The translations under genes were made by a program, and so were the position numbers. Below, in pieces: positions 2-59,132 of a stretch of 64,000 nucleotides of DNA. The number at the start of each line of letters is the position of its first letter. The first letter of the stretch is position 1. This DNA is from Lysobacterales bacterium. GTDB taxonomy: Bacteria > Pseudomonadota > Gammaproteobacteria > Xanthomonadales > SZUA-38. The DNA lies in assembly GCA_030065125.1 (NCBI GenBank), contig JASJDM010000012.1, positions 20,718 through 84,717 of the forward strand, written 5' to 3'. The notes beneath the pieces are model-generated. The model made no database searches. It was not told the origin of the DNA and saw only the letters and a program-made list of their open reading frames with translations.

Positions 2-985
2 AGTCAATCCGTGGAAAACGTCAGTGCAGTTTTACTGGTCACCTCTGAACAGGACAGCATCACCCAGACAACAGCAGCGGAATTACCGGCTGGCTCAGGC
101 ACCTTGACCGCCAATGACGGTGCTGATGGAGGCGCCGACGAGGCCAGCCTCCAGTGGCAGTTCGACTACAACGGCGATCCCACCCTGGAAGAAAACATCC
201 TGCTGGTTGTGGAAATCCAGGAAAACAGCGGTGCGCCTGTGAGCTTTCGCCCATTCGGCGAAATCGCGGTTCTGTCGCCTGACATTGAGCTTTACGATTC
301 CGACCTGGATGGAATGCCCGACCGCTGGGAGACGGACAACGGACTGACCGTGGGAACCGACGATGCGGCGCTTGATCTGGATGGAGACGGTCTGAGCAAC
401 GAACGGGAACTGGTCCTGGGCACCAGACCCCAGATCATGGATTCGGATTCAGACAACCTGGACGACGGCGAGGAAACTCAGCGGGGCGCCGATGGGTTTG
501 TCACCGACCCGCTGATGGCGGACACCGATGGCGACGGGACCCCGGATGATGTCGATCTCAGCCCCCTGGACGCGGGATCAGTGGCGGCTCCGGATCCCGA
601 GGAACTGCCCGGAGAACCAGTAGTCAGCGTCGACCGGACCAGCCTGGTTCTCGACCAGAATACGCGGTCGGCAAACGTCGCCGTGTCGAACGCGGGTGAA
701 GGAACCCTGTTTTGGACTGCCGCCAGCGACAACACGGCCATCGCCGTCACCACTCCGGGCGAAGTGGAATTGCGTGAGGAGGCTGGCACCTTGGTCATCT
801 CGGCGGCACCGACCTTTGATTTCGGCATTAGCGGACCATTGAATACCACGGTGAGGGTGTTCGACCTGGCCGGAGACGACAAGGACGTTCAGGAGATATC
901 GGTTACCGTCGGCCCGGTGGTATCAGAAGACATTTTCGCTGACGGCTTCGAGAACCCGGGTGTGCCCCAATCGGGCGTCGACTGA
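2..985 (+). CDS. C-terminal part of a secreted Asp-rich Ca-binding repeat protein (thrombospondin type-3-like repeats + Ig-like domain); 5' end lies outside the window
   Basis: The frame is open to the window edge; the GTG at 11 is only the first in-window start. Repeated DxDxDGxxDxxE-like strings are present ([48 protein letters not shown]). The protein ends [18 protein letters not shown], carrying the F-x-D-G-F-E motif at 932-952. Confidence 0.7.
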
Positions 986-1009
986 CAATTGCCTGGCCGG
1001 GTGACGCGG

Positions 1010-1585
1010 TCACCCCATGTCGCAGTAGAGCCAGGCCCGTGCCCGGGTCCAAAGCCGGGATGCGGTGCGACCGGATATCGCCATGGCTTCGGCGGTTTCT
1101 TGAACGGTCAGGCCTGCAAAGTAGTGGAGTTTCACCACCTGGGCAAGCCGCGGGTCCTGTTGTTCGAGCCGGTCCAGTGACTGGTCCAGCGCCAGCAGCT
1201 CATCCGGGCCGTATTGACCGTGGTCCAGGGCGTCGGTCAGGGTTTTTCGCTGGAGATCGCCGCCATGGCGCATGGCGCTTTTGCGCCGGGCAATGTCGAT
1301 CAGGATGCGGCGCATGGCCTCGGCCGCGGCTCCGAAAAAATGGGACCGGCCGTCCCAGTCCGACCGGGACTGCACCAGGCGCAGGTAGGCTTCGTGAACC
1401 AGACCGGTGGGCGTCAGTGTTTGGCCGGGGCGTTCGCGCGCCATCCGGGCATGGGCCAGGTCACGCAGCTCCCGGTAAACCAGGGGCAGCAGCTGCTCCG
1501 CTGCCGCCGTATCGCCGCCAGCCATTTGCTGCAGCAGATTGGTCACTTCCGGAGCCGTCGGAGCGGTGTCGGGCCGGTCTGACAT
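1010..1585 (-). CDS. ECF-type RNA polymerase sigma factor (sigma-70 regions 2 and 4), of the kind paired with Ser/Thr kinases
   Basis: 191 aa. Region-2-like LVHEAYLRLV and region-4 HTH-like GLTVQETAEAMAISGRTASRLWTRARAWL. Clear paralog of 17719-18345 (shared HEAYLRL, RK.A.+.GGDLQR, LDRL.Q.D). Head-to-head with the kinase gene at 1601. Confidence 0.9.
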   Translation of the reverse strand: MSDRPDTAPTAPEVTNLLQQMAGGDTAAAEQLLPLVYRELRDLAHARMARERPGQTLTPTGLVHEAYLRLVQSRSDWDGRSHFFGAAAEAMRRILIDIARRKSAMRHGGDLQRKTLTDALDHGQYGPDELLALDQSLDRLEQQDPRLAQVVKLHYFAGLTVQETAEAMAISGRTASRLWTRARAWLYCDMG

Positions 1586-56862: not shown

Positions 56863-56864
56863 CC

Positions 56865-59132
56865 ATGAACACGATCAAGCGACAAACATTGACGGTACTG
56901 CTGGCGCTCTGGAGTGTGACTGCCTGGGCCACCCTGTCCGAGCCCGATCACGTGTTCTACGGCACAGCGACCTTCTTCAGCGCACCGCTGGAAAACAACG
57001 TGCCCATTACCCTGGTGCTGAACGGTGACAGCGAGCCTCTGGTGACCTACCTGTACGGCAGTGACGAGAACCTGGGGGGGCAGTACGCACTGCGGGTGCC
57101 CATGGGTACGCTGGATCCGCCGCTGCCAGGCACCGCCCGCACCGGCCAGTCCGCCAGCATTTTCATCGACGGGGAGCTGGCGGCGGAAGCCATGATTGGC
57201 GAACCGGGCGTCGCCGTGCGGCTGGATATCGATCCCCAGATTCTGACCGGTCAGCCTAACTTCGCCATTACGGATGTCGAGCAGTTCGAAGGCAATGCCG
57301 GTTCGCTGTTCATGACTTTCGTGGTATCGATATCAGACACGACGGACTCTGACGCCAGGGTTCTGTGGGAAACCATGGAAGGGACCGCAACCGGCGGCAC
57401 AAGCTGTTCAGCCGGGGTCGATTTTGTCACCAGTACCGGCCAGGCGAGTATTGCACCCGGAAATCTGTCCACGGTGATCAACGTGCCGATCTGCGGTGAT
57501 ACCGACCAGGGTGAGGGTAATGAAACCCTGATAGTCCAACTGAGCAATCCCGGTGGCGCCAACCTGCTGGACGACCAGGCTCTGGGCACCATTCTGGACG
57601 ATGACGAGCTGCCGACATTGAGCGTGGCGGATGTCCTGGTTGCTGAACCCGGCGCCGGATCAACCGTGGTTCTGATCACCGTCTCTCTGTCCCAGTCATC
57701 TGAGTCACCGGTGACCTTGAGCTACCGGACCCAGAACGCGACCGCCCTGGCGGGCACCGATTATCTGCCGGTTTCAGGGTCCGCGGAAATAGCGGCCGGC
57801 CAGCTGGAGCAGACCGTTGCGGTCACGGTTCTGGCCGACAATCTGTCTGAAGCCAATGAGACCTTCTGGCTGATGTTGTCCAACGCTGTTGGTGCGGTGA
57901 TTGCGGACGATGCCGCCTTGGTGACCATTATTGACCCGCTGTTTGAACCCACGGTGGAACAGGCCAGTCAGACCGTGCAGGGGGTCGATGGCGTGACCGG
58001 TCTGCTTGGGCCATCCGCCATCACCGAGAGCCCGGACGGCAGGTTCGTGTATGTTTCCGGCCGGTCCCTGGACACGGTTGTCACCTTCAGTCGGGCCGCC
58101 CCGTCCAGCCAGCTCACGTTTGTGTCCATGATTGACAATTCCGTGACCGGCTTTGCCGATGCGGCCCTGGATGGCGCCAACGATATTGTGATGAGTCCGG
58201 ATGGGCTGCACGTCTATGTTGCCGCGCTGCGTGAAAACGGTGTCAGCGCCTTCGCGCGGAATGCGGGAACGGGCGAGCTGACCCACGTTGCTTCGTTCAG
58301 AAGCACTGATCCCGTTGCCGGACTTGAGGGTGCGTCCAGCATGGCTTTCAGCCCGGACGGTGCCCAGCTTTACGTCACCGGCCGGCAGGCTGGAACGGTG
58401 GTGGTGTTCAATCGCGACGCCGCCAGCGGGGCGCTCACCTTCGTTGAAGCCGAAACCAATGGAGCTGACGACCCGACCGACCCTGGGGGTGCGGTGAGCG
58501 GTCTGGCCCAGGCATCCGCTGTGGTGGTGTCTCCTGACGGCGCACAGGTGTACGCCACGGGCGCGTTCGATAATGCCGTTGCCGTGTTCAACCGGGTAAC
58601 CGATTCCGGCAGTGCCGACTTCGGCCGGCTGAGCTTCGTGGAGGTACACGCCAATGAATCCGGCGGCGTCATCGACCTGCAGAGTCCGTCAGACCTGCTG
58701 GTCACTCCGGACGGGGAGCATGTCTACGTGACCGCGGAAGCGAGCAACGCGGTCGTTCTGTTTGACCGGGCGGCCAACGGGACGCTGTCATTCCGCGGCG
58801 CCATCAAGAGCGGTGACGAAAACGTGGCCGGTCTGCTGGGTGCCAAGGCGCTGGCCATTCGCGAGGATGGCAGCCTGCTGTTTGCCGCCGGGTTTGCCGA
58901 TGACACGGTGACCGTATTCGGGCGGGATACCAACGCTGCGGCTCCGGAATTCGGCGAACTCAGGGCGCTGCAGACCCTGCGTGACGCTGAAGGCGCCATC
59001 ACCAACATGGGTTGGCCCGAAGCCGTAATGATCAGCCACGACGGCGCCTACGTGTTTGTGGTTTCCAACCGCGACAACGCTGTTGTAGTCCTGGGTACCC
59101 TGGTGCTGTTCGCCGACGGGTTCGAGGACTGA
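56865..59132 (+). CDS. 755-aa exported protein: two Calx-beta domains + one 7-bladed lactonase/YVTN-type propeller, ending in F-A-D-G-F-E-D
   Basis: The ATG lies 2 nt after the upstream stop. Signal MNTIKRQTLTVLLALWSVTAWA. Calx-beta strings (about 57261-57935: FEGNAGSLFMTFVVSIS..GVDFV..EGNETLIVQLS and TDYLPVSG..EANETFWLMLS). Seven blades of the same type as in the giant (about 57955-59105). Ends VLFADGFED* (59106-59129). Confidence 0.9.
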   Translation: MNTIKRQTLTVLLALWSVTAWATLSEPDHVFYGTATFFSAPLENNVPITLVLNGDSEPLVTYLYGSDENLGGQYALRVPMGTLDPPLPGTARTGQSASIFIDGELAAEAMIGEPGVAVRLDIDPQILTGQPNFAITDVEQFEGNAGSLFMTFVVSISDTTDSDARVLWETMEGTATGGTSCSAGVDFVTSTGQASIAPGNLSTVINVPICGDTDQGEGNETLIVQLSNPGGANLLDDQALGTILDDDELPTLSVADVLVAEPGAGSTVVLITVSLSQSSESPVTLSYRTQNATALAGTDYLPVSGSAEIAAGQLEQTVAVTVLADNLSEANETFWLMLSNAVGAVIADDAALVTIIDPLFEPTVEQASQTVQGVDGVTGLLGPSAITESPDGRFVYVSGRSLDTVVTFSRAAPSSQLTFVSMIDNSVTGFADAALDGANDIVMSPDGLHVYVAALRENGVSAFARNAGTGELTHVASFRSTDPVAGLEGASSMAFSPDGAQLYVTGRQAGTVVVFNRDAASGALTFVEAETNGADDPTDPGGAVSGLAQASAVVVSPDGAQVYATGAFDNAVAVFNRVTDSGSADFGRLSFVEVHANESGGVIDLQSPSDLLVTPDGEHVYVTAEASNAVVLFDRAANGTLSFRGAIKSGDENVAGLLGAKALAIREDGSLLFAAGFADDTVTVFGRDTNAAAPEFGELRALQTLRDAEGAITNMGWPEAVMISHDGAYVFVVSNRDNAVVVLGTLVLFADGFED

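Follow-up and report, generated by a model that had tools for sequence, protein, structure and literature searches.

Five exported proteins of the window carry the FxDGFE motif

The DNA analysed here, called the window, is a stretch of 64,000 nucleotides from a metagenome-assembled genome (MAG) of a Lysobacterales bacterium classified in the Xanthomonadales (GCA_030065125.1, contig JASJDM010000012.1, positions 20,718 to 84,717). Five of its exported proteins, A to E, carry the short motif h-F-x-[DN]-G-F-E, where h is hydrophobic; it is referred to below as FxDGFE or the tag. A preliminary description of the window had reported these five copies, and a six-frame scan recovered each of them in place. 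Four of the five sit 1–10 residues before the stop codon, the exception being that of protein D.

For protein A the window holds the C-terminal 327 aa (2-985, + strand), the gene starting upstream; in a sister assembly the protein exceeds 1631 aa. Bacterial TSP3 repeats and a BACON-like Ig domain, both scoring under the Pfam cut-offs, precede I-F-A-D-G-F-E (932-952, +), 10 residues and the stop. Protein B (92 aa; 16170-16448, −) is composed of a signal peptide, a Gly-rich "GGFW" mini-domain of pattern SSGGxFxL...GTIGQ...GGxFxLxGGFW, a linker and the tag V-F-L-D-G-F-E (16182-16202, −), followed by GAP and the stop. Protein C (1115 aa; 27063-30410, −) has a signal peptide, a Cys-rich region, CHB_HEX_C and a MopE-type metal-binding motif before I-F-S-N-G-F-E (27078-27098, −), PLSP and the stop.

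Protein D (about 4390 aa; 32390-45562, +) is made of a signal peptide, DUF11 repeats and lactonase propellers, and its copy, W-I-F-R-D-G-F-E (45086-45109, +), is not terminal, the stop lying 151 aa further. The orphan extension of 150 aa that follows the motif (45110-45559, +) looks coding from the GC content of its three codon positions (0.72/0.53/0.78). Pfam has no match for it, and a word-indexed search of 5.8 billion proteins gave no homologue; the 168-aa end of D resembles none of the loci or proteins that we fetched. Protein E (755 aa; 56865-59132, +) carries a signal peptide, two Calx-beta domains, a 7-bladed lactonase-type propeller and the tag V-L-F-A-D-G-F-E (59106-59129, +), then a single D before the stop.

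Signal peptides are clear on B, C, D and E, A being cut by the window edge; searches with Pfam and NCBIfam bear out that the preceding domains are unrelated, and neither a hydrophobic helix nor a basic cluster follows the motif. On these three points the preliminary description holds.

The [DN]GFE string occurs six times in the six frames of the window, each time within a long open reading frame (ORF). Five of these matches have the hydrophobic-Phe prefix and are those of A to E; the sixth, SEIDGFE, is internal to a TonB-dependent receptor (13505-13516), as previously noted. With the prefix, i.e. [ILVW]F.[DN]GFE, the five copies observed compare with 0.0018 expected from the six-frame composition, and 0 of 200 shuffles contained a match. 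The motif is present in five of the approximately nine soluble exported proteins of the window and in 0 cytoplasmic proteins. Around the five sites the nucleotides are dissimilar and the synonymous codons vary (GGC/GGG, TTC/TTT), thus the conservation is at the level of the protein and not that of a repeated DNA element. A DNA-level repeat at gene ends was ruled out, no nucleotide similarity being found around the five sites.

The motif is kept at the end of distant homologues

The five homologues of B sharing 43–63% identity with it all end in [FL]-x-[DN]-G-F-E plus 0–14 residues. The profile of the B family retrieves 11,296 cluster representatives at E≤1e-3 from 1.84 billion proteins. The tag is at the end of 119 of the 156 members examined, mostly with 0–3 residues past the Glu; the third position before this Glu is D in 80 cases and N in 39, and the following G is replaced by S in 19 of the 119 tails. 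Nearly all full-length orthologues of E (36–44% identity) keep the tag at their end, either as such or slightly degenerate, e.g. FGSGFE, FKDSFE, FDDGFGD or FEDDFGD, and the two Phe of the tag (F749 and F753 in E) are invariant across an alignment of 31 sequences.

The consensus of 155 tails is (P-x-P-D)-x-[IL]-F-x-[D>N]-[G>S]-F-E. After the Glu come 0–16 residues, variable in number, mostly polar and rich in G, S, N and P. The linker joining the preceding domain to the tag also varies: it measures 7–20 residues in the B family, while in the orthologues of E its length changes from one protein to the next and it is often rich in Pro and Glu (P0050, ...SLETPTEPGEPDEADRIFKNSFE; P0045, ...TAAPEPDPTIFSNGFE). 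The tail of P0079, from Lysobacter sp. CAU 1642, ends in LLADGFEDFLDD. Judged by these comparisons, the tag is under selection at the protein level, lies close to the C-terminus and is independent of the domain before it.

Known sorting and anchoring modules occupy the same slot

In other members of both families, a different C-terminal module stands where the tag would be. Of the B cores, that of P0007 is followed by a GC-type dockerin (NF041540, 44.9 bits for a cut-off of 29) and those of P0155, P0190, P0246 and P0259 by dockerin-like repeats, an exchange seen in Phycisphaerales and other metagenomic homologues. P0252 and P0264 have a membrane helix and a basic tail instead, and P0196, P0206 and P0269 a short YLPxVxR tail. 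For the lactonase propellers, the slot holds a PEP-CTERM signal in P0098 (TIGR02595, 17.7 for a cut-off of 16) and, by inspection, in P0102, P0104 and P0110. In P0044 and P0059 it holds the C-terminal domain of the type IX secretion system (T9SS; PF18962), and in P0047 the YLP-box "ultrashort_CTERM" (NF053834, 13.7 for a cut-off of 10).

Two unrelated families thus show a choice-of-anchor pattern, since the slot of the tag holds other sorting or anchoring modules in their homologues. Because the YLPxVxR tail is curated as the YLP-box, there is also a curated precedent for helix-less tags of about 10 residues. As far as homologous proteins can tell, the tag is a lineage-specific, many-copy occupant of the slot used elsewhere by sorting and anchor modules. 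The earlier statement that the motif is not the end of one shared domain is therefore sustained by its C-terminal position in distant orthologues, its variable linkers and these exchanges.

Two further observations concern the tails of these families. The [FY]-L-P-x-[IV]-x-R tail is also present on P0230 and P0177 (B family) and on the propellers P0032, P0052 and P0078. Another recurrent tail, a Ser/Gly run ending in GGGGCF[LI]xxxx-stop, is found on the lactonase-propeller paralogues P0034, P0035, P0036, P0043, P0048 and P0058; it has no NCBIfam match at E≤10 and may be a further uncharacterised C-terminal signal.

The tail is unstructured in the model of protein E

The AlphaFold2 model of E, built on the 31-sequence alignment, has a mean pLDDT (predicted local distance difference test) of 90.1. 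The propeller ends in it with a strand at residues 739-745, and residues 748-755 (LFADGFED) have a pLDDT below 50 and no secondary structure. The possibility that the tag is the last propeller strand of E was rejected, the modelled tail lying outside strand 739-745 and being unstructured. The preliminary description had named a "merely conserved terminal strand" as an outcome that would count against a tag; the unpacked tail of the model speaks against this outcome for E. Invariant Phe residues without intramolecular packing in the model suggest, therefore, a linear motif read by something else. The model of the mini-protein B (7 sequences) was uninformative, with a pLDDT of 55, and the B profile had no match in a sequence search of the PDB.

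A short and a long form of the tag

To see where else the tag occurs, we scanned one genome per species for TTCNNNGACGGCTTCGAG, with at least 120 matches, and used a metagenome sample of likewise at least 120 matches; both were selected by GC-rich codon patterns, and the statements of this section apply to the matches listed. These contain many chance or unrelated hits, e.g. NASTRFADGFE in ProA, plus one sharply defined class, in which two forms can be told apart. The short form, E followed by 0–5 residues, comes from Lysobacterales, Lysobacteraceae, unclassified Proteobacteria and one Fermentibacteria MAG. The long form, h-F-x-D-G-F-E-[ST]-G-[DN]-x-x-x-W-S-x-x-x-P-stop, is 19–20 residues long, usually with exactly 12 residues past the Glu, and comes from Thermoanaerobaculia, Holophagae and other Acidobacteriota. 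Some members of the B family in the metagenome sample carry the long form, which links the two forms. The preliminary description had tentatively connected such strings with secreted proteins of Xanthomonadales-like bacteria, which agrees with the Xanthomonadales origin of the window and with the recurrence of the short form in Lysobacterales. The wider distribution, the fixed-length form of Acidobacteriota and the curated analogue YLP-box were not part of that description.

The relaxed motif, counted in ORFs of at least 80 aa, lies at most 20 residues from the stop in 27 of 75 cases for the genome sample. In a control made of viral contigs the proportion is 9 of 57, again for ORFs of at least 80 aa; three of these nine hits belong to one phage family and one is a genuine long-form tail. 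The latter is that of a 119-aa ORF of an IMG/VR contig (3300004481_000072; L044:1496-1852, +), which ends in a perfect long form, IFSDGFEDGTTSEWSRTTP-stop; its carrier is either a mis-binned bacterial fragment or borne by a prophage.

Where a locus has a C-terminal tag, the relaxed motif is almost never internal; in other lineages the hits are internal or out of frame. At least seven loci contained one or two more tag-bearing ORFs besides the one picked out by the DNA pattern, and the metagenome sample added at least 20. The densest cluster seen is an 11-kb metagenome locus with six tag-ending ORFs in about 7 kb (L305:3600-10800). The 27 tail-bearing ORFs of other genomes have FG-GAP, Peptidase_S8, Peptidase_M10, Big_9, PD40, GSDH, LVIVD and cadherin-like domains, and most complete carriers from other genomes have a signal peptide.

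Genes adjoining the tag genes

A gene for a large secreted protein adjoins that of B on the same strand, mostly downstream, in 73 of 122 B-gene loci, many of which are contigs of 1–3 kb. The encoded protein has an un-annotated N-terminal TYQGxL domain, collagen-like or Gly-rich (GVxG) repeats and, in some cases, a C-terminal Peptidase_S74 intramolecular chaperone; from these features it is a predicted trimer of the phage-tail-fibre type. Examples of such pairs, in the metagenome loci L255-L373 and others, are L288:3057-5765 (−), L272:478-3105 (−), L313:420-2843 (−) and L248:924-2216 (+). The fibre-like neighbour goes with the B family and not with the tag, and the B gene of the window lacks it. 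Between the latter and the gene of an extracytoplasmic function (ECF) sigma factor lies, divergent from B, a gene for a polytopic membrane protein of 288 aa (16610-17476, +). This protein has no significant family (best match YfhO, E=0.067) and its gene is not beside B genes elsewhere.

The gene of C lies upstream of those of a TonB-dependent receptor (24225-26852) and a TPR protein (21232-24228), on the same strand. The gene of E is the last of a conserved operon, in which it follows those of U584 (46577-48331), a secreted protein of 584 aa without assigned function, and of a giant secreted protein of 2843 aa (48331-56862), for which Pfam gives only a faint SBBP repeat. The same order, U584, giant protein, E, was found in two other assemblies (L003 and L005). 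In the window (45573-59132, +) these three genes are preceded on the same strand by those of D and of a membrane-anchored PpiC-type peptidyl-prolyl isomerase. In a sister assembly from the same site (ERZ23486758; L253:6272-8460) the gene call for the equivalent of E consists only of a 134-aa lactonase fragment and an ORF on the opposite strand, which points to a frameshift or to a difference between strains and may explain that E has no match at 100% identity in the protein collection.

In the genome sample, the families that recur beside tag genes are limited to Ser/Thr kinases, ECF sigma factors and the ubiquitous short-chain dehydrogenases/reductases. Pairs of an ECF sigma factor (PF07638) and a Ser/Thr kinase-TPR protein adjoin tag genes twice in the window, at 1010-1585 (−) with 1601-4456 (+) and at 17719-18345 (+) with 18342-21143 (+). 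Among the tag loci of Thermoanaerobaculia, an ECF sigma factor is encoded at L132:7122-8000 and a Ser/Thr kinase at L157:6196-7998. This adjacency may reflect shared regulation or the mere abundance of such pairs.

A proposed sorting or anchoring tag read in trans

That FxDGFE is a genuine modular C-terminal motif appears to us nearly certain from the comparisons above. As for its role, we lean towards a linear tag, helix-less and hairpin-forming, which would be read in trans and serve in sorting or anchoring. After Sec export, the free tail would fold upon binding. [DN]-G being the classic type I' beta-turn, a tight hairpin probably joins the two invariant Phe: the turn would place them across a small beta-hairpin, to which the long form would add a third strand bearing the Trp. 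A common envelope component would recognise the tail in trans, most plausibly by beta-strand augmentation, and the binding would keep the carrier on the cell surface or pass it to an outer-membrane export step. We favour anchoring over pure secretion or export because most of the alternative tails on the same cores are anchors, and because the B gene usually lies directly upstream of that of the trimeric fibre protein, in the same operon. The B mini-protein could then be an anchored adaptor for this fibre protein. A more specific proposal, that FxDGFE is the recognition signal of an undescribed sorting or surface-anchoring system of diderm bacteria, shared in its short and long forms by Lysobacterales/Xanthomonadales and Acidobacteriota (Thermoanaerobaculia, Holophagae), with dozens of substrates per genome, is put forward tentatively; we find it possible and, on balance, a little doubtful.

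Several points weigh against a tag read in trans. Clustering of the neighbours of tag genes did not bring out a protein for recognition or processing. The motif of D is not terminal, 151 aa separating it from the stop. The disordered tail of the monomer model would fit an unimportant tail equally well, and conservation alone argues otherwise. Nearly all the data come from MAGs, and the frequencies and taxonomic limits are rough, the samples being listed matches of GC-rich codon patterns. Finally, we know of no mechanism by which a helix-less peptide of 6–20 residues sorts proteins in diderm bacteria, and the sole curated analogue, the YLP-box, is itself merely "putative".

The tail could instead be a vestige, i.e. 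the opening strand or hairpin of a lost jelly-roll domain, kept to cap the preceding domain without any recognition in trans. CBM4_9, LamG and Cip1-like domains typically open with ...F-E-x-G-xxx-W, and the long form, FxDGFE-S-G-D-xxx-W-S, resembles the first hairpin of CBM and LamG domains. In Actinocrinis (L236) an internal VFCDGFE lies at the start of a jelly roll, Cip1-like or polysaccharide-lyase-like, and the F of GFE is the first residue of its PF21340 match (E=1e-71); in a Thermoplasmata archaeon (L192) a long sequence comes after each of two internal copies, FNDGFEDD...W and FTDGFESGSF..GW. The 151 coding residues after the motif of D would fit as well, but the 150 residues past it have no detectable homologue or family, and the tails taken alone match no Pfam or NCBIfam model at E≤10. 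Moreover, a relic would not be expected to stay invariant at 36–44% identity and across thousands of mini-proteins, nor to stand behind variable Pro-rich linkers on at least a dozen unrelated folds, and a cap should not appear unpacked in the confident model of E. The fixed distance of the long form to the stop and the exchange with sorting modules would be left unexplained. We consider this origin of the tail unlikely.

Equally improbable, in our view, is that the tail is a site for a periplasmic or extracellular protease, acting in propeptide removal, maturation or quality-control degradation, with no part in localisation. The stub after the Glu varies in length and composition (0–16 aa) as a trimmed stub would, the tail is exposed and disordered, hence accessible, several carriers are themselves proteases (S8, M10), and cleaved C-terminal extensions are common in the secreted enzymes of Lysobacter-type bacteria. 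No protease is conserved beside tag genes, however, what takes the place of the tag in homologues is an anchor or a sorting signal and not a propeptide, and there is no obvious gain for a mini-protein of 92 aa with a core of only about 55 aa besides its tag. Processing is in any case not exclusive of sorting: PEP-CTERM, LPXTG and the T9SS C-terminal domain are all cleaved while being sorted.

We give very little credit to a covalent "clip", in which the strand would dock in an acceptor and its Asp or Asn form an isopeptide or ester bond, as in SpyTag/SpyCatcher, thereby tying the carrier to a surface polymer. Either D or N is accepted at an otherwise strict position (the 80 D and 39 N of the B family) and both can form isopeptide bonds with Lys; the hydrophobic strand before them, the conserved Glu after them and the fibre proteins co-operonic with the B family would also suit a clip. 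But the type I' turn explains the D/N-G pair more simply, S replaces G in 19 of 119 tails, the variants FGSGFE and FEDDFGD lack the pair, and no acceptor domain was found. A last idea, that the motif arose by chance or from biased composition or is a DNA repeat located at the ends of genes, has only the shortness of the motif in its favour and is refuted by the five copies for 0.0018 expected, the 0 of 200 shuffles, the dissimilar flanks, the differing codons and the retention of the motif in distant orthologues.

If FxDGFE is the signal of such a system, a dedicated machinery would have to read it in the periplasm, on the outer membrane or extracellularly, since it has no membrane helix. To our knowledge, how diderms outside Bacteroidota choose the Sec-exported folded proteins destined for the surface or for crossing the outer membrane is largely unknown, and we are not aware of a linear signal that serves type II-type secretion or retains proteins at the surface non-covalently. 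A tag of 7–20 residues on thousands of adhesin-like proteins, proteases and mini-proteins would be a testable handle on this question; for the large folded adhesins and enzymes of these phyla, it might provide a first linear signal of export or retention. It would also improve the annotation of "hypothetical" secreted proteins in soil and sediment metagenomes and could provide a minimal surface-display tag.

Comparison with known systems

No Pfam or NCBIfam model covers the tag, whether the five proteins or isolated tails (down to E≤10) are searched, and full-text searches found no paper describing an FxDGFE tag, nor one on the YLP-box. Other terminal elements differ from it in their defining features. 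Type I secretion signals usually follow RTX repeats, on proteins devoid of an N-terminal signal peptide, whereas B to E and most other carriers have Sec signal peptides and no RTX repeat is present on the five proteins. The beta-signal of outer-membrane proteins is a terminal aromatic residue closing the last strand of a beta-barrel; FxDGFE carriers are soluble and multidomain, and their motif finishes with Glu, to which polar residues are added. The opening hairpin of a jelly roll is followed by the other 150–200 residues of the beta-sandwich, as is the unrelated internal copy of L236, whereas four of the five copies of the window and about 155 tails elsewhere stop within 20 residues.

The donor-strand systems offer a mechanistic analogy only. 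In these systems, which comprise chaperone-usher pili, type V pili and the "Pam" pili of the CPR (candidate phyla radiation), a short terminal beta-strand completes the fold of another protein, and a tail-fibre-like gene adjoins the pam operon (bioRxiv 10.64898/2026.03.03.709456). The B genes likewise adjoin tail-fibre-like genes. The B core gives weak repeated matches to the first 85 positions or so of the NCBIfam model of PamT, the proposed tip pilin (E from 2e-6 to 0.03), in the B protein of the window (16170-16448, −), P0229, P0190, P0246, P0252 and P0264. These are far under the cut-off (27.5 bits for 240), and a remote relationship between the B core and PamT is possible. Neither a chaperone or usher nor an acceptor domain was identified near tag genes.

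With PEP-CTERM/exosortase (TIGR02595), GlyGly-CTERM, IPTL-CTERM, MYXO-CTERM and LPXTG, the tag shares a C-terminal and modular nature, restriction to lineages, several copies per genome and Sec-exported carriers of diverse domains. In contrast, these signals have three parts, the motif, a helix that spans the membrane and a basic cluster, as needed by a sortase embedded in the membrane. FxDGFE has no helix and no basic tail: we found no hydrophobic run and no Arg/Lys cluster after the Glu. Any recognition of it must therefore be periplasmic, at the outer membrane or extracellular. Models of the TIGR02595 type do not match the tails at E≤10, although the same search detects PEP-CTERM on P0098. 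No exosortase, rhombosortase or sortase is among the window ORFs scanned against Pfam, which represent 64 kb and short flanks of the MAG.

The C-terminal domain of the T9SS (PF18962/TIGR04183), which directs passage through the outer membrane and attachment to the surface, is also at the C-terminus of Sec-exported proteins of diderms and replaces the tag on P0044 and P0059. It is a beta-sandwich of 70–100 residues restricted to the Bacteroidota-type T9SS, without overlap with the tag in size or lineage, and its models do not match the window proteins or the tails. Dockerins are closest in proposed mode of action, being helix-less C-terminal anchoring modules that dock non-covalently, which for FxDGFE is a proposal. 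They differ in being Ca-binding domains of 60–70 residues, with a duplicated loop-helix and with cohesin as partner, to which the 7–20 residues of FxDGFE have no detectable similarity. The dockerin models (PF00404, NF041540) match neither the window proteins nor the tails, while NF041540 does match the tail of P0007.

The YLP-box (NF053834, NF050076) is the nearest known element. Both it and FxDGFE are short (about 10 residues for the YLP-box, up to about 20 for FxDGFE), lie at the extreme C-terminus without membrane helix or basic cluster, are carried by signal-peptide proteins of many folds and are interchangeable with anchors; both are known from comparative genomics alone. The YLP-box even fills the position of FxDGFE on B cores (P0196, P0206, P0269) and propellers (P0047, P0052). 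The two sequences are nevertheless unrelated, [FY]-L-P-x-[IV]-x-R being hydrophobic and basic whereas h-F-x-[DN]-G-F-E is acidic and aromatic and has in addition its second form of fixed length. The YLP-box profile, which does fire on P0047, matches neither the window proteins (E≤1) nor six tails (E≤10). FxDGFE belongs to no described family, and we regard it as a novel kin of C-terminal sorting and anchor tags such as the YLP-box. If it is indeed read in trans, the two would define a class of ultrashort C-terminal signals, in which the YLP-box would no longer be a one-off.

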